From: an uncultured delta proteobacterium
Lineage (GTDB): Bacteria; Myxococcota_A; Polyangia; Fen-1088
Direction: 5' to 3'
Length of the DNA: 64,000 nucleotides
Assembly (NCBI GenBank): GCA_963755125.1
Contig: CAVWIP010000017.1
Coordinates: 6,308 to 70,307 of the forward strand
Part shown: positions 6,921-28,423 of the stretch, in pieces
Layout: every line of letters begins with the position of its first letter
Position numbering within the stretch: position 1 is the first letter of the stretch
Notes under the pieces: model-generated
What the model saw: the letters and a program-made list of their open reading frames with translations, nothing else
Databases searched by the model: none
Told to the model about the DNA's origin: nothing
Translations under genes and position numbers: made by a program

Positions 6921-8266
6921 TGGTGGCCGAGAAACTGCAATAATGAGCGTAGTCGCACGATTTCTGCATCGCGATCGGTGAGCGTTGTTGCCAAGCGGTC
7001 GACAGCCTTCTTGGCATCTATCAGCTTCTCAACGTCGATGAGACCTGCAATTCTTCGCAACTCGGTCGCTTGCTTGTCTGGGCGACTGTGGGTGCCCATG
7101 ACTTCTTCCAGGATTGCATTCATATCTCGACCTAGTGTTGGGCTGTCGGGCACGGTCACAAGCAGTTCCTCGCCATCGCGGCTTAGGCTTCGAACGGAGC
7201 ACAAGGGGACATCGGCGAGTACGAGGGGTGAATGGGTCGTCACTATGAACTGGACGTTTGGAAAGGCTCGTCGAAGTCGAGTGAGGATGTCCCTCTGCCA
7301 GGCTGGATGAAGGTGTAACTCGATCTCGTCAATGAGCACCCAAGCCGGAATCCTGAGGGACGCCGCAGGCGTCTTGCCATTGCGTTCGCCGATCATCGCA
7401 AGACGTCTTGCCAGATCGGCAACGAGGGCGATCAGGCTGCGTTCGCCGTGAGAAAGTTGGTCGAGTAACAGATCTATTCCGGCCTTGTGTATGGCTACCT
7501 TTGGAATGGGCTTGCGTCTGACGTGAAGATCCTTGAAGCTCGGGAGAAGCGTCTCGACTGCGAGGCGCACGGCGTCGAGTTGTCTGTCCGTGGGGCGACG
7601 CCGGTCCAGGCGACTGGGGCGCGCAATGGCCGCATTCTCCGCGTCCTCACGTTCGCGAAACCACTGGGCAAACCATCGAAAGGTGGCTCCACCGATTCCC
7701 AAGGAATCCTCGTAGGGATTATCAGCATGCGGCCGGTCGGCGTCCTTGATGGTCGCTGCTGAGGAATCGACGTTTGCTCGATCAACCGAATAGTGAATTG
7801 TCAGCGGGATGTCTGCCCATGGTTCTCCAGACGCATCGAAGAACTCGCGAACAAGTGCCTCATTTTTAGGTTGGATGACTTCCCGAGCGATGCCATCCCG
7901 CTTGCCAACGTATGCCTGAAGTGGCCAGCCGTATGTTCGTGCTCGCTTCTTGTTTCGCCATCGAACGGCGAAGGAGACCTCGCAGCTCATCCGATCACGA
8001 CCGACAGAAATGTCACTCGCAGACGTGTTGCGGCTAATGGCTACCTTCTCGGCATGAGGTCTGGTCATGAGTTCGGCCGGGCCGTTTAGCGACATGAATA
8101 GGGAATCGAACATGTGATGCAGGCAGTCGAGAATCGCGGTCTTGCCTGTACCGTTTTTTCCGAAAAGGACCGTGAGGGAGGGGTCGAAGGTCGCCGTGGT
8201 GTCGTGAATGCCACGGTAGTCGCGCATAGTCAGGGACCTGATTACCGGTAGTCCGGTCTCAACCAT
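6917..8266 (-). CDS. ptuA: AAA/ABC-type ATPase, Septu PtuA-like
   Basis: Walker A VLFGKNGTGKT, ABC signature-like LSHGERSLIAL, Walker B WVLIDEIELHLHP, H-loop IVTTHSP; ATG at 8266 (alternative TTG at 8302). Confidence 0.6.
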   Translation of the reverse strand: MVETGLPVIRSLTMRDYRGIHDTTATFDPSLTVLFGKNGTGKTAILDCLHHMFDSLFMSLNGPAELMTRPHAEKVAISRNTSASDISVGRDRMSCEVSFAVRWRNKKRARTYGWPLQAYVGKRDGIAREVIQPKNEALVREFFDASGEPWADIPLTIHYSVDRANVDSSAATIKDADRPHADNPYEDSLGIGGATFRWFAQWFREREDAENAAIARPSRLDRRRPTDRQLDAVRLAVETLLPSFKDLHVRRKPIPKVAIHKAGIDLLLDQLSHGERSLIALVADLARRLAMIGERNGKTPAASLRIPAWVLIDEIELHLHPAWQRDILTRLRRAFPNVQFIVTTHSPLVLADVPLCSVRSLSRDGEELLVTVPDSPTLGRDMNAILEEVMGTHSRPDKQATELRRIAGLIDVEKLIDAKKAVDRLATTLTDRDAEIVRLRSLLQFLGHQ

Positions 8267-8409
8267 GGGCACCAGCTTCGCAGATGGACAGCAAAGCGAC
8301 AACTTCTCATGTTCCCCAGCATGGTGCTATGCGACGACAGAGACGCCAGAGCTGTGCTTCATGGGCGGGGCCACACCGGCCCGACCGGAAATTCGGGGAT
8401 CGTCTACAG

Positions 8410-9944: not shown

Positions 9945-10193
9945 ATGAACGCCAAGAAGAAAGAACCGAACGAGTGCCGGAACCTGGAAGAGCAGAGAAA
10001 CCGCGAATCAATCCGCCCGCGCAGCGCCTGTGCTGGTGAGGTTCGCCACCACCGCGAGTGCGCCTGCGGCCGACCGCGTTCGCTCGTCCGCCACGGGCGC
10101 CGCTGGTACCGCTTGGGCGGCTGCCGGCGCTGCTTGGCCGCCCCAGCGGCGCCAATCGCGGCGTCCTCACTGAAAGGAGGCGGCCATGCGTAG
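9945..10193 (+). CDS. small Arg/Cys-rich protein (possible leader or regulator of downstream module)
   Basis: strong AAGGAG RBS 5-10 nt upstream of ATG 9945; overlaps start of next gene by 8 bp; composition unusual so uncertain. Confidence 0.25.
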   Translation: MNAKKKEPNECRNLEEQRNRESIRPRSACAGEVRHHRECACGRPRSLVRHGRRWYRLGGCRRCLAAPAAPIAASSLKGGGHA

Positions 10194-11190
10194 GCACGGG
10201 AATAAAGTCGATGTAGCCAGCGAATTGCGCATGCGCAAGATTGCGGCCTGCATTCATGCCGGTGCCACCAACATGCCGAGAAAGATCATTGAGGATCGGA
10301 TCGTCAGCGAAATCATCGAGGGGCGCGATGGCGAACCATGCGGGCGGCTCCGTGCCGAGAAGGCGCGACTGAAGGCGATTCGTACCGAAGACGGTGAGAT
10401 TGTCGCCCTCGTCGCCGAGCGGAAGAAGAAGATCGGGCCGGTCGAAAGATGCCTCGATGAGGCTGTCGCCGCCCGGCAGGCGGTCGAGAATGGGGAACTG
10501 CCGTCGTACAGCAACAAGGGGCAGACCATCGGCACGCTCGTCTTCGTGGCCGCCGACGGTTCGTTCATGTTCTGGGCCTTCTGTGACGTCGCCGGCATCG
10601 ACCTCACTCAGGGGGTCGGCGATCTCGCGGTCACGACTGCCGTCATGATCACCTTGGTATCGCTCTTAGGCGTCCTGGTGAATTCCTTCTGCGGCTTCCT
10701 CGCGACGAGCCCCCGCCCGCGGCTGCGGCTCGTCGGCTGGGCGTCGCTGCTAACGATCGCCGTGACCTTGGGAGTCATGCGGGCCAAGTCGACGGCCGAG
10801 ACGAACTACGCCTTCACGGTCTTCGGCTGCATCGTGACCATGGTGGCCGGCTACGCGGCCGGCGCCATCCAGCGGCGGTTGCTCCCGATCATCGGCGCTC
10901 ACCGCGCCCATCGCCGCCGCCTCGAAATCGCCCAGAAGGCTGAATCCGAAGCCCAAGCCAAGCTCGACGAAGTACACGCCGCCGTCGAGCAATTAGAGGA
11001 GCGTCGCCGGTGCCTCAAGGCTGAAGCCGAGAGCCTGGCGAGCATGCCGGCCCGGCGGGCGGCGCGGAAATCCGAAATCGAGAAGATCCAGGACGCCCGC
11101 CTCAAGTCCGTCCGTTACTACTACGCCTTGGGCCGGCGTCTCTTCGGGCGCAAGCCGGCCGACGAGGGGGAGGAGGCGTCCCGTGACTAG
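10186..11190 (+). CDS. membrane protein with N-terminal soluble domain, 3 TM helices and C-terminal coiled coil
   Basis: AAGGAGG RBS; hydrophobic segments LAVTTAVMITLVSLLGVLV / LVGWASLLTIAVTLGVM / FTVFGCIVTMVAGYAAGAI; heptad-like C-terminus. Confidence 0.5.
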   Translation: MRRHGNKVDVASELRMRKIAACIHAGATNMPRKIIEDRIVSEIIEGRDGEPCGRLRAEKARLKAIRTEDGEIVALVAERKKKIGPVERCLDEAVAARQAVENGELPSYSNKGQTIGTLVFVAADGSFMFWAFCDVAGIDLTQGVGDLAVTTAVMITLVSLLGVLVNSFCGFLATSPRPRLRLVGWASLLTIAVTLGVMRAKSTAETNYAFTVFGCIVTMVAGYAAGAIQRRLLPIIGAHRAHRRRLEIAQKAESEAQAKLDEVHAAVEQLEERRRCLKAEAESLASMPARRAARKSEIEKIQDARLKSVRYYYALGRRLFGRKPADEGEEASRD

Positions 11191-11923
11191 ACTGGGGCTT
11201 GCTTTGGCACTCTCCTCGCTCATCGCCTGTGGCGGACGGCCGCAGCCGGTCGAGCGGGTCAGCGTCCCCGACAATTCGACTTCGTCCCACGCCAGCGAGA
11301 TGAGCGTGAAAAAAGAGGCGCAGGCATTCCTCGACGAGCTCGTGCCGGGGAGCCGCTTCACGGTCATGCCGGTGGCCTGCACCAGCGACTTGGTCGAGAT
11401 CATCTACGATATTTGCGTGCCGCTCCGCTTCGGCTCGGGCGCGGCCCAGAAACGGAGAGCCTGGCTCGAGGCCGAGGAACGCCACCTCGAAACGCTCCGT
11501 CTGCGTCGGCCCGAACGCTGCAGCGGCGTCGTCGGCGCCATCTGGCGCGCCAGCCGCTTCCTGCAGGAAAGCGGCCGGCCGGTGAAGGAACTCTACATCA
11601 ACAGCGACTTGCGCGAGGTCTCGCCCGAGCTTGGGCCAGGGATCAATTTCGAGAAAGCCATTCCCGCGCCCGAAGACTTCCTCCTCAAGGTCAAGGAGAA
11701 GAACCTGCTGCCAGACCTCCACGGCGTCCGCGTGTATGTGTACGGCGTGCATGACGAGGCAAGCCCGGACTCCCGCCGGTGGACCTCCCAGCAGGCCGGC
11801 GCCTTGCGCGCGGCCTGGACGGCGTTCTTCAAAGCGGCCGGCGTCGATCACGTCGAATTCCGCGCCACCTCAACTTGGGAGAAGGCCGAGCCGGCCAACG
11901 TCGCCTGGGGCGGGCTGCGATGA
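11183..11923 (+). CDS. lipoprotein of unknown function
   Basis: GTG start after GGGGGAGGAGG RBS; signal MTRLGLALALSSLIACGG (lipobox LIACG); overlaps previous stop. Confidence 0.5.
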   Translation: MTRLGLALALSSLIACGGRPQPVERVSVPDNSTSSHASEMSVKKEAQAFLDELVPGSRFTVMPVACTSDLVEIIYDICVPLRFGSGAAQKRRAWLEAEERHLETLRLRRPERCSGVVGAIWRASRFLQESGRPVKELYINSDLREVSPELGPGINFEKAIPAPEDFLLKVKEKNLLPDLHGVRVYVYGVHDEASPDSRRWTSQQAGALRAAWTAFFKAAGVDHVEFRATSTWEKAEPANVAWGGLR

Positions 11924-12285
11924 CCGCGATCCTCGCGTTCGCATTGGTCGTGGCCGGGTTGGCGGTAGTCGTCGGGGCGCGAGAGACCGCCAAGAAGATC
12001 GGCTTGGCGGTCCTGGCGATCATCGTCTGTATGTCCGTCGGCCGCTGCATCCTTTGCTGGCTTTCCGCGGCCTCGGCGCCGTCGGTTGGCTCCGCGCCCG
12101 GCGTCGGTTGGTTCTGGCCGTCCATCGCCTTGGCGCTGATGGCGATCGGCGGGATTGCGTGGAAGTTGCGGGCAGCCCGGCAAAGTCGCCTGAACGAGCA
12201 TCGGCGTCGCCACATGCACCCGCGCCAACCGGCGCCGCTCCCGCCACCGAGCCACTCATCGGATCGCGGGGAGGAGCCGTTTTGA
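11920..12285 (+). CDS. small integral membrane protein (3 TM)
   Basis: ATGA overlap with previous gene; MTAILAFALVVAGLAVVVGA.., LAVLAIIVCMSVG, FWPSIALALMAIGGIAW hydrophobic helices. Confidence 0.4.
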   Translation: MTAILAFALVVAGLAVVVGARETAKKIGLAVLAIIVCMSVGRCILCWLSAASAPSVGSAPGVGWFWPSIALALMAIGGIAWKLRAARQSRLNEHRRRHMHPRQPAPLPPPSHSSDRGEEPF

Positions 12286-13910
12286 ACCTGGCGCTCACGC
12301 TCGCCCGTCGGGCGCTCCATGGCTCGGACGTGCGCCGGGCCATCGTGCTCCAGCACGAAGCGCTGAAGCGGGAGCGGCAGCGGGCCGAGAGCGGGAATCT
12401 CCCGCCGTGGGACATCGTCGCCGGCACGCCCACCTTTCTCATCGGCCAGACCGCCGACGGCCGAGCCGTCAAGCTCGACATGTCGACGCTGCTTGCCCAT
12501 CTGCTCCTTCTCGGCCCTACGCGCGTTGGGAAGACCGCGCTCATGGCCCTCCTCGTCAATGCCCTGCTTCATTTCGGGATCGTTTCCGTCATCGCCATCG
12601 GCGTTGGTAAGAATGACTCCATCGAGTACACGCGGGCGGTGCTTGCGAAGTGGCTCATGGGCCTGCCGCGGGAGCGGGCCGAGGATATCCTGGGCCGCGT
12701 GATCGTGGTGGCGCCGTCGTCGGGTTCGCACCTGGTGCCCTTCGACCTCACGGCGCCCGAGCCTGGCCGCTCGGCCGAGCTGCAGGCCGCCGACCTCACG
12801 CGCAGCCAGTTCGTCACGCACGCCCATCCCATCGGCCCCAAGCAGGAGGACATCGCCTATCTCACGTTTAGGTTGCTCATCGACACCGGGCTGCCGGCCA
12901 ACTTCTTCGACCGCCCTTTGCGGGATCCGGCGGTCGCTCAGCGTCTAGCCGACCGGACGTCCAACCCCGACCTGTACCGCGGCTACCTCGAACGCCTGCG
13001 CCGCGAGTACCGCAGCGATGCCGTCCTCGGGCTCGTCGCCCGCGCCAACGCCCACTACCGCCATGAGCCCACCCGGCTCATGGTGGGCGGCGCCGAGGGC
13101 GTCACCATCCACGCGCCGAAACTCTTCGACGGCATGGTGGCACTGGTCGACTTGACGGCGGAGTACGGCGCCGAGGACGCCATTCGCTTCATCGGCTCGA
13201 CCTTGTGGAGTCGCTTGGTGCGGGCGTCACTGGCCAGGCTGGTGGGTAGCCCGCCGTGCTTCGTGTTGGCCGACGAGTTCCAGCAGCTGCTCCAGTCGGA
13301 GCAGGATGCGGCACTGGCGCTCGAAAATGTCTTGCGCCTTTGTGCGGCGCGTAGTGTGTGGTGGTGGCTTGCGACGCAGACGCTCGCCGGTCTGGAACGG
13401 TACGGCTCGTCGCTATCCAAGGTCATCGCGGTCAACGCCACGTTCAAGGCGATCTTCCGCACCTCGGACGCCATCGACGGCCTGCTGCCGGTGACCGGTC
13501 GTCGGCGGAGGCCGTGGGCTCCGGCTCCGTGGCAGAAACCGGCCGATTATTATCTCTCGCGGAGCGAGGAAAGGGCCTATCTGGCCGAGCAACTCGCCTC
13601 TCTCGGCCCCCGGCTCTGCTACGTCCAGCACGCGAAGAGCGGCCGGGCCGGGACATTGATCCGCACGGCGGATGCGACCGTGTCCATGCCCGAGGACTGC
13701 CCGGACTTCATCCGCGTGGGGCTCGAGCGCGGCACGTTGGCCGTGCCAGTCGAGAAACTTCGCCGGGGGCTCGATGCTGCCGAGCGGCGGTTCGCGGCGC
13801 TCGTGGACGATCCGCGCGCGGCCGAGATAGCCAGAACCGAGTCCGCGGCCATCGAGGTTTCGTCGCCCAAGCGGAAGACGCCGCGGGCGCGGCCGTTGGA
13901 GATGGGGTGA
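12282..13910 (+). CDS. P-loop ATPase of FtsK/HerA/VirD4 (T4CP-like) superfamily
   Basis: Walker A GPTRVGKT, Walker B CFVLADEF, downstream WWLATQTL (ATQ motif typical of FtsK-HerA clade); probable TTG start overlapping previous stop. Confidence 0.5.
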   Translation: MNLALTLARRALHGSDVRRAIVLQHEALKRERQRAESGNLPPWDIVAGTPTFLIGQTADGRAVKLDMSTLLAHLLLLGPTRVGKTALMALLVNALLHFGIVSVIAIGVGKNDSIEYTRAVLAKWLMGLPRERAEDILGRVIVVAPSSGSHLVPFDLTAPEPGRSAELQAADLTRSQFVTHAHPIGPKQEDIAYLTFRLLIDTGLPANFFDRPLRDPAVAQRLADRTSNPDLYRGYLERLRREYRSDAVLGLVARANAHYRHEPTRLMVGGAEGVTIHAPKLFDGMVALVDLTAEYGAEDAIRFIGSTLWSRLVRASLARLVGSPPCFVLADEFQQLLQSEQDAALALENVLRLCAARSVWWWLATQTLAGLERYGSSLSKVIAVNATFKAIFRTSDAIDGLLPVTGRRRRPWAPAPWQKPADYYLSRSEERAYLAEQLASLGPRLCYVQHAKSGRAGTLIRTADATVSMPEDCPDFIRVGLERGTLAVPVEKLRRGLDAAERRFAALVDDPRAAEIARTESAAIEVSSPKRKTPRARPLEMG

Positions 13911-13913
13911 CTA

Positions 13914-14242
13914 TGGCGGGCAAGAAGTCGGGCATCTGGTGGGCCATGAAGATGGTGTTGTTGTTGACGTTCTTCGCCGTGTACGGCGTCGTCTGCTTGG
14001 TCGGCTCGACAATCCGACTCGCCCGAAGGATCTGCTGGGGCATCAGGCTCCTCCGTCACACGATCCGTTGCCCATATTGCCATTTCGAGGTGCCTTTGGT
14101 CGGTCGCTATTTGTGCTCGACACCGGGTTGCGGCGCCGAATACCAGGGCTTCATCCAGAAGTGCAACATCTGCGGCAGCGGCTGCCTGTGGACGCCGTGC
14201 CCGCGGTGTAGCGCCGCTGTGCAGGTGGGGATGAGGACATGA
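13914..14242 (+). CDS. small membrane protein with double CxxC zinc-ribbon
   Basis: TM helix MKMVLLLTFFAVYGVVCLVG; CPYCHF..CSTPGC..CNICGSGC..CPRC; starts 4 nt after ATPase stop. Confidence 0.4.
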
Positions 14243-15159
14243 CCGGCACCGTCAACGGCACGTGGCCCTTTCTCGATCCGCGCATGGACCGCGAGCGCGT
14301 CGTGCGCATCTGCTACGTGGTCGCACGGCTCGGCTACTTCTGGTGCGCCGACTGCGGCTTCATCTTCTTCAAGCGCAAGAACACGGCTCGGCAGTACCCG
14401 GCCCGGCTCGTGAAGCGCGGCCTGCTCGAAACCTTCCCGCGTCGGAGCCTGGCCGACTCGCACGTCTATCGCGTCTCGGAACGTGCGCTCGAATGGCTGG
14501 TAGACGAGATTGGCTGCGACCCCAGCGACGTCTGGCGGCCCGCGAGTCTAAGGCGCTTGAACGTTCCCGCCGCGCGCGCCATGAACCGCTTCTGGTGCTC
14601 GCTCGTGGCCGCCTGTGAGGGCTCGCCGATACGCTTGCACCGTTTCGTGCCCGAGCGCCAGTTGCGCCGGTTCAAGGCGCCGGGTTGCCCTGTGGTGCCG
14701 GACGCGCTCTTTGTGCTGGAGGCGTCGGCCGAGGGCGGCGCCGAGGGCGCATCGCGGCTGCCCTGGTTCGTCGAGCAGGACAACAGCACCGAGCGCCTCA
14801 AGGTCTGGGCCGAGAAGATCCGCGGCTACCGGTCCAATCTGCCCTCGGGCCGCCTGTACGGGATGCGTGACTGGCTGCTGCTTGTGCTGGCGCCAACGCG
14901 CAAACGCGCGGCCAACATCAGCCGCACGGCCGTCGCCGCTGGCGGCGGCGACTTCACCTACGTCGCCATCGCCGCCGTGCTCGAAGGCGGGCACGCCTTG
15001 GACGCCGTGCTCTGGCGGGCTTCGACCCTCGCCGCGGACGCCAATGCCGTGCCGACCGACACGCTGGTTTCCGCCGCTCGGAGCACGTCTCGACCTACGT
15101 CAACAACCCCTGTCAGGCCTGACGGGCTTTCCCAGCACCTTTCCGGAGGAATTCCGTGA
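14239..15159 (+). CDS. putative winged-helix DNA-binding protein (replication-relaxation-like)
   Basis: ATGA overlap with previous gene; N-terminal wHTH-like RICYVVARLGYF..; family assignment tentative. Confidence 0.35.
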   Translation: MTGTVNGTWPFLDPRMDRERVVRICYVVARLGYFWCADCGFIFFKRKNTARQYPARLVKRGLLETFPRRSLADSHVYRVSERALEWLVDEIGCDPSDVWRPASLRRLNVPAARAMNRFWCSLVAACEGSPIRLHRFVPERQLRRFKAPGCPVVPDALFVLEASAEGGAEGASRLPWFVEQDNSTERLKVWAEKIRGYRSNLPSGRLYGMRDWLLLVLAPTRKRAANISRTAVAAGGGDFTYVAIAAVLEGGHALDAVLWRASTLAADANAVPTDTLVSAARSTSRPTSTTPVRPDGLSQHLSGGIP

Positions 15160-15493
15160 AGTTCCCTTTTTCAAGGCTGCGGTCAATACGCCCTGCCTGC
15201 TCTGGCGGGCAGGGCGCCTCTGTTTGGGCGGCGGCGCCGCCGCCCTCGCGCGCGGCGCGGGCCATGCCCCCGCGCGCCTTCCCGAGATCCCTGTCACGCC
15301 GGCTCGGCCGGCGATTCGTACCGGTATTCATTTGCATTCGCACACAACAAGTTCAGGCGCGGGAGTGTCCGCGCCGAAAGGAGGTCGGTCACGGAACATC
15401 GGGCCACGCGGAAGTTGGTGGAGACTGGCCAGCCGAGTCGCGCTCGCGGCTTGCACACCGGGCTCTCTTTACTCAACTAAAGCAACACCCAAT

Positions 15494-16186
15494 ATGAGCA
15501 ACCACAACCTGACGTACAGCATCTCCAAGCGGACTCCGGCAACGCCGAAGGCCGTCAAGGAGATCTTGGACGCCCAAGCGGCATTAAATAGCGCCTGCAC
15601 CTGGACGCACGAACGCCTCGCGTTCGTACCGCCTCGGGACGCGGGACGCGCGGCCTTCCCCCTGCAATTCGCGAGATTTGGACTCGCATCAGCCAACCCG
15701 CCTGCTTTGGACGGATTCGGCGCTCATCCGCCGACTCCTCCTGCGGATGTCTTCATGTCCGGCTCGACGCGCGTGCGCGACAACCTATGGAACGCCCACC
15801 TCGTCGCAGCATTCTTGAAGCACATCTCGCGCAAGCATCCGACGCTGCTCTTCGAGCTACGCGACGACGGCGGGTTCGTGATCCCGGGTTCCGTATGGAT
15901 CCGGGGAGGTGCTGTGGAAGTAAACCGCGAGTTCCTGAATACAGAGCGCGCGCGAGTGCTGGAAGTCACCGGCGACCCGCAGGCCGCAGTTCCGTACGTG
16001 TGGGCCGAACTTCAGGCTCTCGGAGGGTCCTTCTTCGCGGAAGCGTCGATGGACGACTTCGGGAACGTGCCGGAAGTCCGGGAGCTGGGAGCTTCCTGGG
16101 ACCAGCTTGAGAGCATGAGCATCGAGGATCTCGCCTCGCTTGTCGTCGAACACGCGACGACGGAGGCGGTCCCCGTCGCGGCTTAG
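15494..16186 (+). CDS. hypothetical protein
   Basis: ATG 15494; 230 aa; no recognised motif. Confidence 0.35.
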   Translation: MSNHNLTYSISKRTPATPKAVKEILDAQAALNSACTWTHERLAFVPPRDAGRAAFPLQFARFGLASANPPALDGFGAHPPTPPADVFMSGSTRVRDNLWNAHLVAAFLKHISRKHPTLLFELRDDGGFVIPGSVWIRGGAVEVNREFLNTERARVLEVTGDPQAAVPYVWAELQALGGSFFAEASMDDFGNVPEVRELGASWDQLESMSIEDLASLVVEHATTEAVPVAA

Positions 16187-16337
16187 GCAGGAGGCCCATG
16201 TCATTCGTGATCAACCAGCAGAAGGGGGCGGGCGGAGCGCGAGTCCGGTGTGCGACGCGATCGCGTCGCGGCTTCGCGCCACCGTCCGCCCCCGCTGCGC
16301 TACGAGTCATACGGCAAACAACTACGAGGGGTGCAGC

Positions 16338-16613
16338 ATGAACACGATCACCGCAACGACCGGCGCTGAGCCGTCATCGCCCGCGAGCGCGGCGGACGAT
16401 TCGCGCCTTTGGGACGCGAACGATGTGGCCCGGTTCATCGGCGCCAGCCGTTCCTGGGTCTACCATCAAGCGGAAGCGGGACGATTGCCTTGCATCCGCC
16501 TTCTCGGTTTCCTACGCTTCGATCCCCAAGTGGTCCGGGCTTTCGTGCTGGCGGCGTCGTCCGCGCCAGCAAGGTTGAAGTCCGGCGACGCTTCGGGCGC
16601 TTCAGGGAGATAG
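16338..16613 (+). CDS. excisionase/AlpA-family HTH DNA-binding protein
   Basis: WDANDVARFIGASRSWVYHQAEAGRLPCIRL HTH; GAGGGGTG RBS; immediately precedes integrase. Confidence 0.55.
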   Translation: MNTITATTGAEPSSPASAADDSRLWDANDVARFIGASRSWVYHQAEAGRLPCIRLLGFLRFDPQVVRAFVLAASSAPARLKSGDASGASGR

Positions 16614-16616: not shown

Positions 16617-17981
16617 ATGCCTTCGGTTTTCAAACGCGGTGTTCGCTGGTACGCGAAATACAAGGACGCGACGGGGCGGTGGCGCACCCGGCCGACGACG
16701 GCCGACACCAAGACCGACGCCAAGCGGTTGGCCACTGACCTCGAACGCCAAGCCGAGCGCCACCGGCTCGGCTTGGAACCGCTCCCTACCGACGACGGCA
16801 CCACGCTCGGCGACTTGCTGAGCTGGTGGGAGACGACGTACTTCAAGCAGAGCCCCGCCTATGCGAAGAGCTGCGGCACATTCCGCCGTCACCTAGTCGG
16901 GTCCAACCTGTCGAAGAGCTCAATACGCGAAGTGACGACGGGCAGGGTGGAGCAGTTCATCCAGGCGAAGACGCGCGAGCTGGCTCCCCAGACAGTGAAC
17001 CACCTGCGCAGCTTCCTCTGTCGCGCCTTCAGCGCCGCCCGGCGCGCCGGCAAGGTCACCCAGAATCCGGTCCTCGACGTGAAATGTCGGCGCGTGCCCA
17101 AGCGCCTCCCAACGTTCCTGACCCTGGAGGAGGTTCCGCGCGTCCTGCTCGCGCTCCCCAGGCGCTGGCGGCCACTCTTCGCCACGGCCATCTACTCCGG
17201 GCTGCGCAAGGGCGAGCTGCTCGGGTTGCGGAAGACCGACGTGGATCTCCCGCGGCGGCTCATTAGCGTTTGCCGCTCGTACGCGCGCGACACCACCAAG
17301 GGCGGGCACGCGGAGGCGGTGCCCATCGCCTCCGAACTGGTGCCGTACCTCGAAGCCGCCATCAAACAGTCCTCGTCCGAGTTGGTCTTCCCAAACGAGG
17401 ACGGCTCGATGATGTCCGAGGAGGCGTCGCTCCAGGAACTGCTGCAGTCGGCGCTCGCCCGCGCCGGGATCGTGACCGGCTACAGCCACATCTGCCGACG
17501 GAAGGGATGCGGGCATTCCGAGGTGGCGAAGGACGCCGACCTGCGGCGTTGCCCGAAGTGCAAGATGAAGCTCTGGCCGCGGGCGCTGGTGCGGAAGATC
17601 CGCTTCCACGACCTGCGCCACACGACCGCGTCGTTGCTCATGATGGCGGGCGCGAATCCGGCGGCCGTTCAGCGCATCCTTCGCCACAGCGATCCGCGCA
17701 TCACGACTGAGGTTTACGGCCACCTGGCACCGGAATATCTCCGTCGAGAAATCGATCTCCTGTCCTTTGGCAAGCCCGTGAACGACACCGGAAACGCTTC
17801 CGCAAGCTCACCGAAAAACGATCCGTTTGGTGCATTAGTGGTACAAGAACCGAATGATGCACTGATCGGCGGATCCAGTGGATCTCGGAGCCCCCTGGAA
17901 ATGCAGGGGTTTTCGCTTGAGCGCGAGACGGGGCTCGGACCCGCGACCCTCGGCTTGGGAAGCCGATGCTCTACCAACTGA
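16617..17981 (+). CDS. tyrosine integrase (phage integrase family); 3' tail reads across tRNA-Gly on opposite strand
   Basis: catalytic R..HDLRHT..R..Y region (IRFHDLRHTTASLLMMAG, EVYGHLAPEY); no stop until 17981 so last ~60 codons overlap tRNA 17920..17992. Confidence 0.8.
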   Translation: MPSVFKRGVRWYAKYKDATGRWRTRPTTADTKTDAKRLATDLERQAERHRLGLEPLPTDDGTTLGDLLSWWETTYFKQSPAYAKSCGTFRRHLVGSNLSKSSIREVTTGRVEQFIQAKTRELAPQTVNHLRSFLCRAFSAARRAGKVTQNPVLDVKCRRVPKRLPTFLTLEEVPRVLLALPRRWRPLFATAIYSGLRKGELLGLRKTDVDLPRRLISVCRSYARDTTKGGHAEAVPIASELVPYLEAAIKQSSSELVFPNEDGSMMSEEASLQELLQSALARAGIVTGYSHICRRKGCGHSEVAKDADLRRCPKCKMKLWPRALVRKIRFHDLRHTTASLLMMAGANPAAVQRILRHSDPRITTEVYGHLAPEYLRREIDLLSFGKPVNDTGNASASSPKNDPFGALVVQEPNDALIGGSSGSRSPLEMQGFSLERETGLGPATLGLGSRCSTN

Positions 17982-17992
17982 GCTACTCGCGC
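17920..17992 (-). tRNA. tRNA-Gly(CCC), 73 nt, no encoded CCA; atypical T-loop TCCGAGC
   Basis: minus-strand GCGCGAG TA GCTC AGTTGGTA GAGC A TCGGC TTCCCAA GCCGA GGGTC GCGGG TCCGAGC CCCGT CTCGCGC T: 7-bp acceptor, D arm, anticodon CCC, U73 discriminator. Confidence 0.6.
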
Positions 17993-17993
17993 A
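17955..17993. repeat. 39-bp direct repeat (tRNA-Gly 5' half), left copy; putative att core
   Basis: identical to 58272..58310. Confidence 0.6.
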
Positions 17994-18026
17994 AACGTAA
18001 TGTTTTCAAACTGTTATCTGTACTTC

Positions 18027-19256
18027 TTAGCCCCCGTTATGTGCCCCTGTAACCACAGCGTAACCAACGGTACCGTTCTGCGTCCCCGGACAGCCTATTG
18101 ATACCACGTCCCCACCGGAGTGCGAAAGGTCTACCCGGACGGCATCGAAGTCCTCTTCCTTGAAGTGCTCGGGTCGAAGATGCGCGTAGCGTTCCGTGGT
18201 GGTCACGCTGGCATGCCCAAGGATCTTGGAGAGCTTCTCCAGCGAGTGGCCATCCATCACCCACAGGCTCGCGAAGGTGTGCCTGGTGGCCTGGTACCAC
18301 GAGATGGGCGGTAGCTTGCAAGCCTTCAGCGCCTTCGCAAGGTTGCTTCGTAGGGAGTGGGCACGCATGAAGGTTGAGGGTCGCTTTGCCGTTCCCCCAC
18401 GCGTGGGACACGTAGGAACGAACAACATCCCCTCGCCTCCGGTCTTGAGCTTCCACCGCGCCAAGATGGGTGCCAGGGCATTCTGCAAGGGCACGATGCG
18501 GGGGTCGTCATCCTTGAGCGGGGCCAGCCTCCCGTCCTTCACCTGTTGTGTTACGTGGATTCGCCGGTTGGCTAGGTCCACGTCCTGCCAGGAGAGCCCC
18601 AGTACCTCGCCTGTTCTCAGTCCCGCCAGTGCCCCCACGGCGAACGCCACGTCGTAGGGCTCGCTCAAGGCCCGGAACACCCGTTCGACATCCGATATCT
18701 TCTCCAGGAATGGCGTGTTGGTGGTATCCAGCTTGGAGCGATACAGCCTTCGTACCGAACGAGGAAGCAGGGAGACAGGATTCACCCGTGCGAAGCCCTG
18801 TTCGATCACCTCCGCGAAGAAGGTGGAGAACAGGCGGATGCAATGTCCTACGGTTGTGGGGTGCATCCCCTCACTGAGCTTGCGTTCCACGAAACGGCGC
18901 AGGCTTGTCGAATCCACCTCGGTTGGCTTGCAGGCCCCGAAGAAGGGATCGAGATGCTTGCGCCATCGGCAACGATCATCGCGCCAGGCCCGATGAGTCT
19001 GCTCGCGCCGGTCGAGCCAGTCCTTGGCCAAGTTCTTCAAGCTCGGGGCCGTCTTGAGTTCGACGGGCATCCTATCCCGCCCTGCACGCGCATCTGCGGT
19101 GAGCACGTCCAGCATCTTCTTGGCTTCGTCCTCGGTGGGATACCCTCCCTTCGTGCACACCCGCCCTGCTACACGCCACTTGATCCAGAAGTTTCCGGGG
19201 CCGCGCTGGTAGACGCAGCCTTGCCCGCTGGGCCTTTTTCGTTTCTTTCGTGCCAT
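18027..19256 (-). CDS. tyrosine integrase (phage integrase family)
   Basis: start MARKKRKRPSGQG with AAGGAG RBS; R..HTFAS..R..Y catalytic region (ATRHTFASLWVMDG, TTERYAHL); 3' end 34 bp from tRNA 5' end. Confidence 0.85.
   Translation of the reverse strand: MARKKRKRPSGQGCVYQRGPGNFWIKWRVAGRVCTKGGYPTEDEAKKMLDVLTADARAGRDRMPVELKTAPSLKNLAKDWLDRREQTHRAWRDDRCRWRKHLDPFFGACKPTEVDSTSLRRFVERKLSEGMHPTTVGHCIRLFSTFFAEVIEQGFARVNPVSLLPRSVRRLYRSKLDTTNTPFLEKISDVERVFRALSEPYDVAFAVGALAGLRTGEVLGLSWQDVDLANRRIHVTQQVKDGRLAPLKDDDPRIVPLQNALAPILARWKLKTGGEGMLFVPTCPTRGGTAKRPSTFMRAHSLRSNLAKALKACKLPPISWYQATRHTFASLWVMDGHSLEKLSKILGHASVTTTERYAHLRPEHFKEEDFDAVRVDLSHSGGDVVSIGCPGTQNGTVGYAVVTGAHNGG
18044..18075. repeat. ~32-bp repeat cctgtaaccacRgcgtaaccaacggtaccgt (also 58126..58158; partial 58661..58690); encodes integrase C-terminus, candidate arm-type site
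   Basis: direct comparison of the three loci. Confidence 0.45.
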
Positions 19257-19368: not shown

Positions 19369-19690
19369 TCAAGCTGATCGCAGCTTGGCCACCTTGTCGG
19401 CGATGGTCTCGCGGTCGGTTCCATGCAACCGCGCCATGTCCACGCGCACGGTGTTGCCGATCTTGACCGTCGGCACCTCGCCCCTCTTCACCCACCGGCG
19501 CATCGTGGGAACGCTGACCTTGAAGGCGGTAGCTGCTTCCGTGATGGTCACGAGGGCAGGGGGCAGGGCGGCCCGCAAGCTTTCCAGCTTGTCTGTGTTG
19601 TCGGTGACTGCACGCTCCAACGCCGCGAGCCGCGTGGGGATATCCCCCATGGCCGAGAACAAGGCAGCCAAGTTCTGCGTGTCGCTCATC
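19369..19690 (-). CDS. excisionase-family HTH protein
   Basis: C-terminal FKVSVPTMRRWVKRGEVPTVKIGNTVRV HTH; start MSDTQNL (alt. M14); adjacent to integrase. Confidence 0.5.
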
Positions 19691-21307
19691 GGCTCACCAC
19701 CCAACGTGGAGCCGCAAGCGTACCAAGACGACACGGTCACCCAGAGCAGCGGCGTCGAGGACAACAGCTTCTCCCAGATCTTGGCACCCCTGGGCGGCTT
19801 GACGACGAGCAGCACCCCCGACGAGATCAATGCAGCCGTGCGCACCTGGGCCACCGGTGTGGTCGACTTGCCGCCCGTGGAGCGGGTGACAGCCAGGGCC
19901 GAGGCGGTCCGCCTCTTGAAAGATGTGAGCGTGCGATCAGCAGCAGCCCTGGTCGATGCGGCGCTTGCCGAGGCGCTTGCAGCCAAGCAGGACGAACCAG
20001 ACGGCGACGACGCGCCGATCTCGACTGGACAGTTTGCCGAGGTCGAGCCGTGGCCGGACCCCGTGGACGGGCAGGACCTCATTAGAGAGCTGGAGTCATT
20101 CGTCCGCAGGTTCTTGATTTTGCCCAGCGAGCACGCCTACATGGCTTTGGTTCTCTGGGCGCTGGCGACGCACGCGCACGACCTGTTCCAGCTTTTCCCG
20201 ATCTTGGTGATTTCCAGCCCCGTTCCGGGAAGCGGCAAGACCACGGTCCTGACGGTGTTGTCCGCGCTGGTGCCCAAGCCGTTCTTCACCAGCAACGCGA
20301 CCGCGGCATCATTATTCCGTGCAATCGATGACTTCCACCCCACGGTGACGATCGACGAGGCTGACAGTTTCTTGATCGGCAACGAGGCCCTGCGCGGCTT
20401 GCTCAACTCTTGCCACCTCCGCGCTTACGCTTTCGTGACCCGCGCCATTGGCACGTTCTCGACATGGGCGGCCGTGGTGCTCGCCCTCATCGGCAAGGTG
20501 CCCAAGACGGTCGAAGATCGCGCCATCATCATCCCGATGCAACGGCGTGCGCCGCACGAGCAGGTCGAGCGCTTCCGTCAGGACCGGCTCCACGAGTTTG
20601 AACACTTGCGTCGGAAAGCTGCCCGCTGGGTGCAAGATCATGCCGAACAAATCCCGACGGCCGATCCCGAGATTCCCGACGAGATCTCGCGTGACAGAGC
20701 GCGCGACAACTGGCGCGTTCTCCTCGCGCTTGCAGATGAAATTGGTGGCGATGTTGCCCGCCGTGCGCGAGAGGCGGCAGTGGCGCTGTCGAGAGCCGAC
20801 GAGGAGTTCGACGAGGACCCGGCTACGCTGCTTCTGCGTGACCTGCAAGGGCTCTTCCACCATCGGTGCGCGGACCGCCTCGAGAGCCAGGAAATCGTGA
20901 ACAGCCTAGTCGCGATGCCAGATCATCCTTGGTCCGCCTACAACCATGGGCAACCCCTGACCACACGAGGCTTGGCAGTGATACTGGGGCTATTCCGCAT
21001 CAAGCCCCAGAAGTGGTCGGTGACGGAAGCTGGAAGACGGATATCGAAGCGGGGCTACCTGCTTTCAGATCTAAAGGACACGTTCGCCCGCTACGTGCCG
21101 GCTCCGGCTGGCCCGCTGCCCGAGCCGACTGAGCCCAACGAACCGCCCCAAGCGCCCCATCCGCCCCAGGTGCCACCGCTGCCGGAGCCCACGGAATCGC
21201 CAGAGCCAGTGCCCAACGAACCGCCCCAAGCGCCCCAAGCGCCCCCGCCGGAACCTGCGAAGAAGAAGACCAAGCCAGTCATTCCGTACTCTAGGGCCCG
21301 GTCGTGA
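19649..21307 (+). CDS. P-loop NTPase, DUF3631/VirE/phage-primase C-terminal-like, with Pro-rich PEPTEPNEPPQAP C-terminal repeats
   Basis: Walker A VISSPVPGSGKTTVLTVL; Walker B-like TVTIDEAD; start uncertain (overlaps xis 5' end). Confidence 0.4.
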   Translation: MAENKAAKFCVSLIGSPPNVEPQAYQDDTVTQSSGVEDNSFSQILAPLGGLTTSSTPDEINAAVRTWATGVVDLPPVERVTARAEAVRLLKDVSVRSAAALVDAALAEALAAKQDEPDGDDAPISTGQFAEVEPWPDPVDGQDLIRELESFVRRFLILPSEHAYMALVLWALATHAHDLFQLFPILVISSPVPGSGKTTVLTVLSALVPKPFFTSNATAASLFRAIDDFHPTVTIDEADSFLIGNEALRGLLNSCHLRAYAFVTRAIGTFSTWAAVVLALIGKVPKTVEDRAIIIPMQRRAPHEQVERFRQDRLHEFEHLRRKAARWVQDHAEQIPTADPEIPDEISRDRARDNWRVLLALADEIGGDVARRAREAAVALSRADEEFDEDPATLLLRDLQGLFHHRCADRLESQEIVNSLVAMPDHPWSAYNHGQPLTTRGLAVILGLFRIKPQKWSVTEAGRRISKRGYLLSDLKDTFARYVPAPAGPLPEPTEPNEPPQAPHPPQVPPLPEPTESPEPVPNEPPQAPQAPPPEPAKKKTKPVIPYSRARS

Positions 21308-21323
21308 ACCACGCATCGTGCGT

Positions 21324-21354
21324 GGGGCGGATGGGGCGGATGGGGCGGATGGGG
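21324..21354 (+). other. canonical G-quadruplex motif (GGGG CGGAT)x3 GGGG, 9-bp tandem repeat
   Basis: gtGGGGcggatGGGGcggatGGGGcggatGGGGcac directly after stop of P-loop gene. Confidence 0.4.
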
Positions 21355-21839
21355 CACGGTTTTCGGGGCGGCTTTCCCCAGGCACCGAAAGTTGATCTGC
21401 CACCGATGGCATCGACCACCGGCACGGCTTCACCGCCTTGAAGCAAGGCGACAGGGGTTCTGGAAGGAGAACGAGCAACAATGGGCTATCGACTTCGACT
21501 CATAGAGTTGGAAACCGACGAGTGTGACCGTTGCCTGCGCGGAACAACGGCAGCGCCGCGGGCGATGGGGGCGGGACCCGAGAAGGCTAAGATCGTAGTC
21601 GCCGTACCGGCGATGACCGCCGAGATGGCCGCAATCGGTCACCCGATTCCCCCAGCAAGCCGCGCCTGGGAGTTTTTCGACTGGCAGTTCACCACCTGCA
21701 GCTACCCGATCAATGGGGTGCGCTTCACCGGCCTCGTCAGGTGTCCCGGGCGTGCGCTGTCCGAGCCAGGCTGCGTTGCCCAATGTGAAGACCACCTTGC
21801 CCATGAACTTGCGGCCGTTGGCGCAGAGGTCCTGCTGCT

Positions 21840-23084
21840 CTATGGCCGCGTCACGCCGGAGTCATTTGAAGGAAGCCGCCGGTTCAGCAGCTCTGGAGAT
21901 GCCGTCACGTTCGCCTGCAGCGACGATGTGATCGTGCCGGTGCTCTTCATCGACGACCTGGACACCGTGTTGCAGCAGGCGGACATCGCGTTCTGTCGGT
22001 TGTTGTTCACGGTTACAGTCCGAACCAGTTCATCCTCGGAGGTTTGAACGATGCGAATCGGCAACAGGACTCGCTCCCAAAGATCCTCTTTGATCTTCGT
22101 TCTAAGGTGGGGGTCGTAGCGGAAGAAGAATGCGTTCTTGATCGTCTGGCAGCCGTTGAGCACAAATGCCTCGCGCAGCTCAACCCCGCCATCGACAACC
22201 TCACTGCGACGTGCGAACAACGTGATGCCATTATGAAACATGGCGAACCGCTCAGGGGTGAGCGTGCCTTCCACGCAAATCTGCTTTAGGGTCGCCCTCA
22301 TCTTTCCGGCCGGGCCCTTCTCGGTGTTCTTCTTCGACATGAGGTAGTACCGCACGTTTCGGGAGAACAAGGCATCTCGCCGAGCGCAGTACAGATTCAC
22401 CAAGTCCGCCAGTCGACCTACGCCGGTTAGCATGCTAGCCCCTTCGCCGGCGGAGAAGTGGTGTGCCCCTTCAAGACGAAGCATCACCGTCTCAGGGCGC
22501 GCTACGACGATTTGTTGTGGCCCGACGTGTACTGGCCCAACCGGTCGGATGCGGCACGTGTGTCCGTCGAGCACGTCTGCGACAACCTCGCGAAGCCGGG
22601 TCATCGCGCCTCCCAGACGCTGACCAAGTATCGCCTCCTCTTCGCCCGAAAGGTGGAGGACTTGTAGCTCCAGCTCAAGCGAGGATCGGCTCTCCTCCGT
22701 GAGCCTGTTCAGAGCTGCGCGCAGATTCATCAGGACCTTGTTTTCGACCACGTTCTCGGGCTCGAGTCCTTGAAGACATCGGCCTATCTCACCTAAGGTC
22801 CGTTCAAGATCCTTGAACCCCTTTGCCACCATCTGGAGGGATTCCGTGTACTTCGCCTGCACAAGTACCAGCGTGTCCGGTTTTGCGCCGTTCCCAGATT
22901 CGAAATGAAAAGCGTCGACCCCGAAGTCGTAGTTGCCATCCGAAGACTGCTGCATAGCCTGGCTTTCCGGCAGTTGGAACTTTTGGTGCAGGTACCAAGG
23001 GGCGAAGCAGTGTGCCTCGGTCCCGGTGAAGGCAGTCCGCTTCCAGAAACTCCTGACCTGGTCCCTGACTGCTGCGCTATTCAT
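21840..23084 (-). CDS. AIPR-like abortive infection protein (putative)
   Basis: N-terminal PD-(D/E)xK-like DFGVDA..VLVQAKY; later VLNGCQT matching AIPR NGxQT motif; strong AAAGGAGG RBS. Confidence 0.45.
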   Translation of the reverse strand: MNSAAVRDQVRSFWKRTAFTGTEAHCFAPWYLHQKFQLPESQAMQQSSDGNYDFGVDAFHFESGNGAKPDTLVLVQAKYTESLQMVAKGFKDLERTLGEIGRCLQGLEPENVVENKVLMNLRAALNRLTEESRSSLELELQVLHLSGEEEAILGQRLGGAMTRLREVVADVLDGHTCRIRPVGPVHVGPQQIVVARPETVMLRLEGAHHFSAGEGASMLTGVGRLADLVNLYCARRDALFSRNVRYYLMSKKNTEKGPAGKMRATLKQICVEGTLTPERFAMFHNGITLFARRSEVVDGGVELREAFVLNGCQTIKNAFFFRYDPHLRTKIKEDLWERVLLPIRIVQTSEDELVRTVTVNNNRQNAMSACCNTVSRSSMKSTGTITSSLQANVTASPELLNRRLPSNDSGVTRP

Positions 23085-26402: not shown

Positions 26403-26520
26403 CGCAGCTGCCGCAGGTGAGGTCAGGATGGCACTGTACGGTAACGATATCTTTGAGAGTGACGCTGCCTACGAACGATGTTTTGACGATGGAGTTGACC
26501 CGATTTGGTGGACGGTTTCG

Positions 26521-27405
26521 TTACGCAGCTTTCTTACCAGCTTTCTTCACTGAGTGCATCAGCTCAAATTCGATTGGGCTGTTGTAATTGAGCGCCGAAT
26601 GACGGCGGCAAGGATTGTAGAAGCCTTCGATGTACTCGCCAATCGAGAGGTTAGCTGCCTCCCAGCTTTCGAGATCGTCGATGTCTTCCAACTCGCGCTT
26701 GAGGGTCGCGAAGAAACTCTCGGCCACGGCATTATCCCAGCAGTCTCCCTTCCGGCTCATGCTGCATTCTATGCTTCCGGCTTCCAAGGCTTTGCGGTAG
26801 TCGTCGCTCGCGTACGTGCTGCCTCGATCTGAGTGGTGAACCAGGCCGCTGCCGGGCTGGCGTTGGCACAAGGCCATGGCCAGTGCCGCGAGCGCGAGGT
26901 GGCGATCGACATTCCGACTGGTCGCCCAGCCGACAACCCGCCTGGAAAACAGGTCGAGAATCACCGCGAGGTACAGCCAGCCTTGCTGCGTCCACAGAAA
27001 CGTGATGTCAGTGACCCACGACTGGTTTGGACGAAGCGCGGTGAAGTTGCGCTCCAGCACATTCGGCGCGATGGGGAAGCTGTGCTTCGAGTCGGTGGTC
27101 GTGCGAAAACGATGACGACAGCGCGCCACCAGCTTGTTTTCGCGCATCAGCCTGGCCACCCGCTTGCAACCCACCCGATCCCCGGAAGCTTTGAGGTCGG
27201 CATGAACACGGGGACTGCCGTATCGTCGCCGGCTCCCGTGATGAATCGCGGCTATCCGCTCGGACAGATCCTGGTCACGGCGTGCGTGCAACGAGGCGGG
27301 CCGTCCCTGGCTGGCGTAGTAGCCACTGGGCGAAACGGCCAAGACACGGCAGAGGACCGCGACGGGGAAGGCCACCTTCTCCTCGGAGATGAACGCAAAC
27401 CTCAC
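26521..27405 (-). CDS. IS3-family transposase OrfB (rve integrase core)
   Basis: HHSDRGSTYAS .. DNAVAESFFATLKRE DDE-region motifs. Confidence 0.85.
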   Translation of the reverse strand: MRFAFISEEKVAFPVAVLCRVLAVSPSGYYASQGRPASLHARRDQDLSERIAAIHHGSRRRYGSPRVHADLKASGDRVGCKRVARLMRENKLVARCRHRFRTTTDSKHSFPIAPNVLERNFTALRPNQSWVTDITFLWTQQGWLYLAVILDLFSRRVVGWATSRNVDRHLALAALAMALCQRQPGSGLVHHSDRGSTYASDDYRKALEAGSIECSMSRKGDCWDNAVAESFFATLKRELEDIDDLESWEAANLSIGEYIEGFYNPCRRHSALNYNSPIEFELMHSVKKAGKKAA

Positions 27406-27707
27406 GCGCTCTCCTTGGCGAAGAAGGTGGCCGCCCTTTTTAAAATCTCACGCTCCATGCGGAGGACTTTCACCTCGCGACGCAGATGCGAAAGTTCTTC
27501 CTTCTCGGCGGTCGTCAGGGCGCCAGCAGGGCCCTTGCCCTCGTCTACCCTCGACTGCCGATCCCACTGGTACACCAGGCTGCTTGCCACCCTGAAGTCC
27601 TTTGCTACCTGCGCGACGCTGCGTCCTGCACGGACGAGCGCCACCAAGTCTGCCTTGAACTCGCGCGTGTGCATGCGCCGGGATCGCTTCTTCTCTTTGT
27701 CCAACAT
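27402..27707 (-). CDS. IS3-family transposase OrfA (HTH)
   Basis: MHTREFKADLVALVRAGRSVAQVAKDF; -1 frame relation to orfB; candidate slippery run TTTTAAAAAG near junction. Confidence 0.8.
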   Translation of the reverse strand: MLDKEKKRSRRMHTREFKADLVALVRAGRSVAQVAKDFRVASSLVYQWDRQSRVDEGKGPAGALTTAEKEELSHLRREVKVLRMEREILKRAATFFAKESA

Positions 27708-28423
27708 GTGGTCACCTTTCTACGCCCATTTTCCTGAGCGAGGGTGTCCACCAAACCGGGTCAAGTCCACGAGAAGAAGCGGTTGTCCTCGATTGTCCTC
27801 CTCACGCTCCTCCAGAACCTTCATGATGTGATGGCCCTTGTCCTCAAGAAGGATCTCAACCTGGTTCCCAAAGAGGGCGCGCCCAAGCCCGCTCGGCTGA
27901 TGTACCACGCCATATGCCTACTGACTCGCTATCTCGCGAAAGAGGACATGCGCGACTTCGTCGCGCTCTGGGGGGCACAGCTTCACTACAAGGACAAGGA
28001 CTTCCGGGAGGAGGTTCGCCGGATCCTGAACTCGACCAAGAGTGGGATTCGCGCCGAATTGTCTCGGCAATTCATGTCGCTTGAGTCTGGGAGCGCGGAG
28101 CAGCTCAACGAGGCTTTTGATCGATGCAAAGCCGCTTTGAAACTCAAGGACGGCATCGATCCCTTCGAGACCTTCAAGGACCTAGATGAACAGGTGCCGG
28201 TGTTAGGGGAAGCTGATGATTGACTGAGGGGATCCCCGCATTTGGGAGTAGCAAGTGTTGATATTGTTGGGTCAGGGACCGGCGCGGTGGTGTGCAGGAG
28301 GTTGATGTTCTTGCCACCATCCACCGAGGCCCGCTGTTTTTCCGACGGTCGCTTCCAGGTATACTACCCCGCGTGGTTGATTGAGTGCCCATGGTTCCTG
28401 TCTCACGTGCAATCGGAGGCACC

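Follow-up and report, generated by a model that had tools for sequence, protein, structure and literature searches.

A tRNA-Gly(CCC) gene between two convergent integrases in an uncultured Myxococcota bacterium: a probable integration hot spot in which opposite halves of one tRNA are used

How did a single tRNA gene come to lie between two integrase genes that converge on it, and why does one of these reading frames run on into the tRNA itself? We address this question for a stretch of 64,000 nucleotides from an uncultured member of the Polyangia (GenBank assembly GCA_963755125.1, contig CAVWIP010000017.1, positions 6,308 to 70,307 of the forward strand; the whole stretch is called the window, and positions are counted from its first letter). 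The sole tRNA of the window is an intact tRNA-Gly(CCC) gene on the minus strand (17919-17992). It was found by ARAGORN and matched Rfam family RF00005 at 17920-17992 over the full model, 1-71, with 66.9 bits (gathering score 29), which bears out the assignment made in an earlier reading of the letters alone (the sequence-only reading). The left integrase gene (16617-17981, plus strand, 454 aa) and the right one (18027-19256, minus strand, 409 aa) converge on this tRNA. As had been claimed, both encode tyrosine recombinases, which match PF00589 (cut-off 27.1 bits) with E 4.4e-22 and 79.1 bits (left) and E 2.9e-17 and 63.4 bits (right). The right gene is co-directional with the tRNA and lies upstream of it, its stop (18027) being separated from the tRNA 5′ end (17992) by a gap of 34 nt, the distance already given in the sequence-only reading. 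The left open reading frame (ORF) enters the tRNA at the 3′ end (17919) and has its stop codon end at 17981, or tRNA position 12, so that 63 of the 74 tRNA nucleotides are covered and 11 nt remain up to the 5′ end. Its supposed passage across the whole tRNA therefore stands only in part: the frame does read antisense through the tRNA but stops at position 12. The two integrases share 26% identity and belong to different families. DNA that is 100% identical over the compared stretches, with the same integrase proteins, is present in several metagenome assemblies and metagenome-assembled genomes (MAGs) (L001-L007). The observations described below lead us to read the locus as a tRNA integration hot spot, in which at least three elements have used tRNA-Gly(CCC) and opposite halves of the gene have served as targets (probability roughly 0.8).

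On the 5′ side of the tRNA, an island of 40.3 kb (17994-58271, no strand assigned) is bounded by an exact direct repeat of 39 bp, for which zero matches are expected in shuffled sequences. The proximal core (attL, 17955-17993, minus strand) comprises one upstream base and tRNA positions 1-38, and the distal core (attR, 58272-58310, minus strand) is a displaced 5′ half of the same tRNA. The repeat is hence the 5′ half of the tRNA and not the usual 3′ part; a search of the window with a 30-nt pattern and three mismatches allowed found no repeat of the tRNA 3′ half anywhere. A second direct repeat, arm-type-like and 31 bp long (ACGGTACCGTTGGTTACGCYGTGGTTACAGG), is located on the minus strand inside the 3′ end of the right integrase gene (18046-18076) and again at the far end of the island (58120-58150). 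In the reconstructed circular-form junction (attP, ATCATGTCCAGGTGAGTTGGGAAGCCGATGCTCTACCAACTGAGCTACTCGCGCAAACGTAATGTTTTCAA) its copies lie 52-83 nt before and 121-152 nt after the core, placed as arm-type sites would be. The corresponding empty-site junction (attB) reads ACCCGCGACCCTCGGCTTGGGAAGCCGATGCTCTACCAACTGAGCTACTCGCGCATTCTCTTTTAATTTCA and was not found in the viral contigs searched. At 58210-58228 (minus strand) a hairpin followed by ATTTTTG can be read from the sequence; the circular form would place it behind int and the core. Immediately 3′ of the displaced half (58230-58271, minus strand), the island arm ends in TTTGTGCTCAA and a hairpin. Both resemble the acceptor 3′ strand of the intact tRNA (CTCGCGCTCAA) and the hairpin downstream of it, and G-U pairs would still allow TTTGTGC of the island arm to pair with the 5′ acceptor strand; the segment has the look of a full tRNA copy that has decayed within attP.

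The right island is absent from a related contig, L182, in which left-type xis and integrase genes and tRNA-Gly(CCC) are joined directly to a homologue of 58311-58389 (80% identity). A comparison with relatives that lack the island, which the sequence-only reading had proposed as a check, yielded the empty site of the right island. Judged by the features used in Islander, the right island combines an intact tDNA with a displaced, directly oriented fragment of it, encloses an integrase gene, measures 40.3 kb (2-200 kb being allowed), has the fragment on the 5′ side and, with L182, shows insertion polymorphism in the form of an empty site in a relative. Beyond the distal core we found the C-terminal remnant of a third integrase (58361-58633, minus strand, 90 aa; PF00589 E 3.4e-8, 33.9 bits). 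It belongs to the right-hand family and lies 50 nt upstream of the displaced tRNA 5′ half, an arrangement whose spacing and orientation match those of intact integrase and intact tRNA; a homologous remnant also occurs in another contig, L183. The position of this remnant behind the displaced half indicates that an older element of the same type preceded the present one. Together, the exact 39-bp repeat, the empty site in L182 and the third integrase remnant support the earlier proposal of successive island insertions at one tRNA.

Is the use of the 5′ half a peculiarity of this island? The right integrase has 751 homologues, and in alignment A3 the catalytic residues R214, K248, R325 and Y357 are invariant and H348 is nearly so; in this family, the usual His three positions ahead of R325 is replaced by Gln. 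Nearly all homologues of either integrase stem from MAGs of Polyangia or other Myxococcota. A scan of one genome per species with an alignment of right-integrase homologues gave 80 loci, every one in a Myxococcota MAG, and 74 of these were informative. An intact co-directional tRNA lay within 150 nt of the integrase stop in 40 of these 74 loci (range -9 to +94 nt), and the tRNAs concerned represent 16 anticodon types. A convergent tRNA was seen in only five. Both ends were visible in four loci, two in Leu-TAG (L022 and L036, approximately 7 kb) and two in Arg-CCT (L067 and L076), and in all four the repeat block extends from tRNA position 1, with one or two upstream bases in some, to just past the anticodon loop. 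With the window included, identity blocks end at tRNA positions 37-39 in five independent loci. Because the repeat blocks end there in the window and in the four other loci, the crossover most likely takes place in the anticodon loop. The 5′-half geometry is the rule of the right-type integrase clade in Myxococcota. In one further locus (L030), ARAGORN read the anticodon of the tRNA directly behind the right-type integrase (7223-7298) as 'tttt' and left its identity undetermined; it may have been a tRNA-Lys that recombination in the anticodon loop damaged or changed.

The left integrase, a tyrosine recombinase related to the Int protein of Myxococcus phage Mx9, behaves differently, its last 21 codons being the antisense of tRNA positions 74 to 12. 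It has 1217 homologues, and R197, K228, H331, R334, H357 and Y367 are invariant in alignment A5. Among the best 120 of the 1217 homologues, the tail after the catalytic tyrosine ends in antisense-tRNA peptides, including antisense T-arm peptides, in 99 cases (for example GFEPLTYGSGGRRSIQLS, RDSNPRPPASEAGTLS and GNRTPNPRLRRP). Three reading frames are used by these 99, in 86, 6 and 7 cases. Short contigs and distant integrases made up most of what a metagenome scan with the left-integrase alignment yielded, and only 24 loci were usable; in eight of these a convergent tRNA (Arg, Met, Pro, Val or Gly) contains the stop of the homologue, 6-11 nt in from the tRNA 5′ end. Since antisense-tRNA tails are present in 99 of the 120 homologues, the read-through is a trait of the family and not peculiar to this locus. 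Upstream of the tRNA, the left ORF contains a 24-mer (17823-17846, plus strand) that encodes PFGALVVQ, the conserved tail motif of the family. A terminator-like GC-rich hairpin followed by TTTTCG (17892-17909, plus strand) lies within the same ORF, 10 nt before the tRNA 3′ end. As read from the alignment, a hairpin of different sequence occupies this position in L182, L183 and a third related contig, L008, and the codons that cross the tRNA may not even be transcribed together with int.

In three NCBI MAGs (L004, L005 and L006; GCA_049580865.1, GCA_049590665.1 and GCA_049686575.1) the left integrase is not annotated and only short ORFs are called. A loss of the gene in these genomes was rejected, as their DNA is 100% identical to the window over the int-tRNA region compared and only the annotation differs, which is likely due to the overlap between coding sequence and tRNA.

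A subset of the left-type homologues has another kind of tail: the tRNA-derived part stops at the anticodon loop and is followed by a second LLQ motif and an HTH_17 domain. Such HTH_17 tails occur in more distant left-type homologues (P0174, P0209, P0215, P0216, P0229 and P0238). Of tRNA-Arg(CCG), the DNA encoding P0238 (L185) has only the part that runs from anticodon loop to 3′ end, with HTH_17 coming after it; there is no intact tRNA. We read the HTH_17-tailed homologues as the unrecombined attP form; a search for this form in the left element or in relatives with at least 70% identity found none. The left family would accordingly keep its attP inside the 3′ end of int, and integration would swap the distal part of the ORF for the 5′ half of the host tRNA. 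The two integrases of the locus are members of different families that use opposite tRNA halves. This had been missed in the sequence-only reading, as had the 5′-half nature of the repeat and the family-wide occurrence of the read-through.

The body of the left element can be outlined less sharply. Directly upstream of the left integrase lies an excisionase-like HTH_17 gene (16338-16613, plus strand, 91 aa), which gives a weak match to PF12728 (E 4e-4), matches a hidden Markov model (HMM) of the HTH_17 tail and is called in L001-L003. It is included in a co-directional operon (9945-16613, plus strand; drawn from the gene calls of L001/L003 and from GC content) that represents the probable element body, with an uncertain left limit. 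The operon also encodes a Replic_Relax protein (14239-15159; PF13814 E 5e-13) and a protein of 542 aa (12282-13910). The GC content rises from about 9.8 kb and amounts to 65-68% in 9945-16613 versus 56-60% at 4-9 kb. The co-directional operon and the higher GC content suggest a left-element body of approximately 8 kb. A 10-mer (AAGAACCGAA) present at 9961 and 17845 was considered as a repeat of the left element and rejected, because it does not exceed chance level.

Among the relatives, L008 carries a right-type integrase (89% identical) and keeps the tRNA and 96 nt downstream, up to the PFGALVVQ 24-mer, where its homology to the window ends. The 24-mer occurs twice in L008, which also has a tRNA-fragment-like stretch but no left integrase. 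We rejected L008 as an empty site of the left element, since remnants of a left-type integrase tail mark it as a decayed and not a naive site. In L183, the tRNA fused to the left-type integrase (83% DNA identity) is tRNA-Arg(CCG) (2491-2565), and upstream of this tRNA lie the remnant of a right-type integrase mentioned above (2684-2998) and a spacer homologous to 58311-58591. The presence of the left-type integrase on tRNA-Arg(CCG) indicates that close relatives switch targets, and both element families change their tRNA target with their flanks retained.

The following course of events would account for the locus. The attP of the right island would have brought tRNA positions 1-38, which follow the island's own integrase gene at 34 nt and share its orientation. 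This 5′ half would have been joined to the resident 3′ half by recombination, the anticodon loop being the most likely place, and the old 5′ half displaced by 40 kb. The region upstream of the tRNA is now element DNA, and the island may supply the tRNA promoter. An earlier element of the same family would have inserted likewise, its integrase stub and spacer remaining behind the displaced 5′ half. The left element would have entered on the 3′ side with an attP located in the 3′ end of int, which contains the antisense of the tRNA from the anticodon loop to the 3′ end. After integration its ORF would run on through the tRNA until it meets a stop in the D-arm, and the tRNA-crossing tail would be a by-product of the attP geometry instead of a selected peptide.

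Several points weigh against this reading. All sequences used for comparison are metagenome assemblies, no circular (attP) junction of the right island was found in the viral contigs searched, and no sigma-70-like promoter was detected upstream of the tRNA. For the left element, a displaced 3′ tRNA fragment, which this reading predicts at the far end, perhaps with an HTH_17-coding tail after it, and which Islander looks for, was not found in 1-17.8 kb by pattern (30-nt 3′-half pattern, three mismatches), repeat (seed 9, in 1-18.1 kb), exact 11-mer, blastn-short and Rfam E-value scans. Neither a second copy of the 24-mer nor an HTH_17 tail (HMM) was present in 1-17.8 kb, so that the boundaries and the insertion mode of this element are putative. 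Its junction has either decayed or been deleted, and because the far junction is not detectable the left element is probably a stranded remnant. On the right, 45908-56683 recurs with 99.98% identity in contig L175 (253 kb, from another sample, ERZ25039466); past 56683 this contig has unrelated chromosomal genes, among them those for a histidine kinase, a response regulator and a homoserine dehydrogenase, where the window has dinB and the att site. Either a strain-level rearrangement or a chimeric contig is behind the divergence, and the 40-kb island may be a mosaic or consist in part of rearranged chromosomal DNA.

One might suppose that the whole 40-kb segment is a mosaic of elements, insertion-sequence rearrangements and captured chromosomal genes that accumulated between the old fragment and the current tRNA. 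L175 leaves the window at a point between the genes for UPF0149 and dinB, both of which look like housekeeping genes at the right end, and two identical IS3 copies (~26490-27707 and 39872-41089) as well as a second HTH_17 gene (37250-37582) fit such a history. However, both ends share the 31-bp arm-like repeat at the positions expected around a core, the 39-bp cores are identical and the entire segment is absent in L182. A mosaic interior, moreover, is compatible with a single pair of functional ends. We regard a mosaic origin of the segment as unlikely, while its interior is probably mosaic in view of the two identical IS3 copies and the second HTH_17 gene at 37.3 kb. For the tail of the left integrase, a functional and selected role, such as that of a C-terminal peptide required for activity or regulation, could be argued from the single frame shared by 86 of the 99 tRNA-crossing homologues, which gives G[FL]EP...SIQLS, and from the motif PF[GA]xx[VL][VL]Q, which is conserved at the protein level upstream of the tRNA part. 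Yet the two other frames occur as well, the peptide mirrors whichever tRNA is the target, and the position of the stop is set by the conserved D-arm sequence. Furthermore, the plus-strand terminator-like hairpin precedes the tRNA, and the attP-form homologues have a different sequence and HTH_17 as the second half of the tail, so that selection on the tail is improbable. Equally improbable is the idea that the left element itself carried the tRNA in the 3′ end of int and that the right island inserted into this element-borne copy. It would explain why left-type integrase and tRNA are always found together in the window, L182 and L183, and why the near-identical integrase of L183 is fused to a different tRNA, Arg-CCG. 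The attP-form homologues, however, carry the 3′ half only, and L008 has the same tRNA-Gly with 96 nt downstream in the absence of a left integrase. We therefore retain the reading of a tRNA integration hot spot, and the locus is an instructive but essentially ordinary one.

The island end next to the tRNA contains, besides the right integrase gene, an excisionase-like HTH_17 gene upstream of it (19369-19689, minus strand, 106 aa; PF12728 E 1.1e-8; called in L004-L006). The cargo comprises this xis-int pair, DUF3631 and AIPR/AbiU-like genes, the two IS3 copies, Kelch-repeat genes, PDC-M60, UPF0149 and a DinB polymerase. The stretch after xis-int, 19649-23084, encodes the DUF3631 protein, whose tail (21124-21254) consists of proline-rich repeats, and the AIPR/AbiU-like protein (21840-23084), a module that is retained in L002 and L004-L006. 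A candidate defence system, PDC-M60, lies at 38966-45486 on the minus strand (A, 41989-45486, E 4e-101; C, 38966-39859, E 3e-77); two response-regulator-like genes are found at 41143-41992, and the second IS3-family copy splits the parts of the system. Both IS3 copies consist of orfA (HTH_Tnp_1) and orfB (rve), have the same orientation and are 13.4 kb apart; a 300-nt repeat shared by them is 100% identical, and the copies could mediate deletion or inversion of the intervening DNA. Two Kelch-repeat (beta-propeller) paralogues (28385-29551 and 32514-33713), with internal repeats of approximately 132-159 nt, are the source of most direct-repeat families in the window. A 61-nt repeat occurs three times (33814-33874, 37247-37307 and 37620-37680; 61-75% identical) around the second HTH_17 gene, which is located on the plus strand and adjoined by an HNH endonuclease gene (37700-38707); this arrangement may be a trace of another small element. 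Finally, there is an HU-like gene at 58.9 kb, whose protein has no database record from either of two start codons.

Leftward of the left element, the window contains core chromosome including rpoD. Between this and the left element lies a complete Septu anti-phage system (6276-8302, minus strand), which consists of PtuA (6917-8302, PADLOC E 5.9e-103) and PtuB (6276-6920, E 9.2e-63). A fourth tyrosine recombinase, XerC/D-like, is encoded at 2751-3704 on the plus strand (SAM_1 and PF00589, E 4e-33). Close to it, contig L092, from another assembly, diverges from the window at 4175, within an ORF of 391 aa (3989-5164). We considered this point as a left boundary and rejected it, as L092 continues into AT-rich unrelated DNA and shows no att features; a different insertion, a strain variant or a chimeric contig may be the cause of the divergence.

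The locus offers a clean and fully delimited case of the rarer 5′-half integration, adjoined by a further element across the same tRNA, at its 3′ end. It also makes plain that the geometry relative to tRNAs is fixed within each of two abundant integrase families of uncultured Myxococcota and opposite between them. As a tentative generalization, which we consider somewhat doubtful as a whole, the Myxococcota-restricted right clade may systematically replace the 5′ half of tRNAs together with their upstream control, and the left clade may swap its HTH_17 domain on integration. If this holds, expression of host tRNAs of at least 16 anticodon types would depend on element DNA, either on the spacer between int and tRNA or on read-through from int, and the persistence of integrase 3′ stubs beside tRNAs after decay of the element would be explained. 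Loss of HTH_17 from the left-type integrase could then act as a built-in switch between the integrated and the free state. In practical terms, island finders restricted to 3′ fragments will miss such islands, and pipelines that forbid an overlap of coding sequence and tRNA will drop left-type integrases, as exemplified by the three NCBI MAGs mentioned above. The integrases of Mx8 and Mx9 are standard engineering tools in myxobacteria, and the right-hand family represents a set of natural attP/attB pairs for many myxobacterial tRNAs.

Every component of the locus has a precedent, namely islands with 5′ fragments, tandem arrays, int ORFs that span attP (Mx8, SSV) and the use of a 5′ half in Mx9, and the current understanding of tRNA islands is unchanged by it. 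Of 3919 islands in Islander, 159 have 5′ fragments and 125 are counted as tandems, and the integrases of Mx8 and SSV span attP (Hudson et al., 2015, PMC4383910). Like the islands defined there, the right island has an intact tDNA, a direct displaced fragment with the integrase between, a size within 2-200 kb and a 5′ fragment upstream, and the further integrase and fragment in tandem resemble its tandem arrays. The difference, and a new detail, is that one tRNA is occupied on both sides by elements using opposite halves. A 5′-half geometry across a whole Myxococcota integrase clade and the swap of the HTH_17 tail in an Mx9-like clade are further new details; the 5′-half habit of an entire clade, over 16 anticodon types, we have not found stated in the accessible literature.

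Among the phage matches listed, the closest relative of the left integrase is Int of Myxococcus phage Mx9 (36% identity over aa 122-387, the catalytic region). In the deposited sequence (AY247757) the Mx9 int ORF reads the antisense of tRNA-Gly(CCC) positions 1-42 at approximately aa 465-478, and a C-terminal HTH_17 domain (aa 489-537) follows the core. Both phage and left element target Gly-CCC and carry the core antisense towards the 3′ end of int; in Mx9 it lies roughly 40 aa beyond the catalytic domain. However, Mx9 carries the tRNA 5′ half and HTH_17, whereas the left integrase runs through the 3′ half first and lacks HTH_17 when integrated. In its choice of the tRNA half Mx9 resembles the right island, whose integrase belongs to a different family and is co-directional with the tRNA. 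With an int ORF that extends across tRNA positions 74-12, the left integrase shares the hallmark of the Mx8/Mx9 type, an int ORF across the att core or tRNA. Mx8, which uses a tRNA-Asp site, was not among the top phage matches listed for either integrase. Integration of Mx8 is reported to alter the C-terminus of IntP (Tojo et al., 1996, as cited in PMC11610982). By this account Mx8 has already established that an integrase ORF can continue past the junction into host DNA, as that of the left integrase does. An anticodon-loop sublocation class of tRNA-integrating tyrosine integrases is said to have been defined by Williams. Both families of this locus can be compared with that class, as the identity blocks of the right type end at the anticodon loop and the tRNA segment of the attP-form left-type homologue starts there. 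In the classical anticodon-loop class, attP extends from the anticodon loop to the tRNA 3′ end; the right family is its mirror image, extending from position 1 to the anticodon loop.

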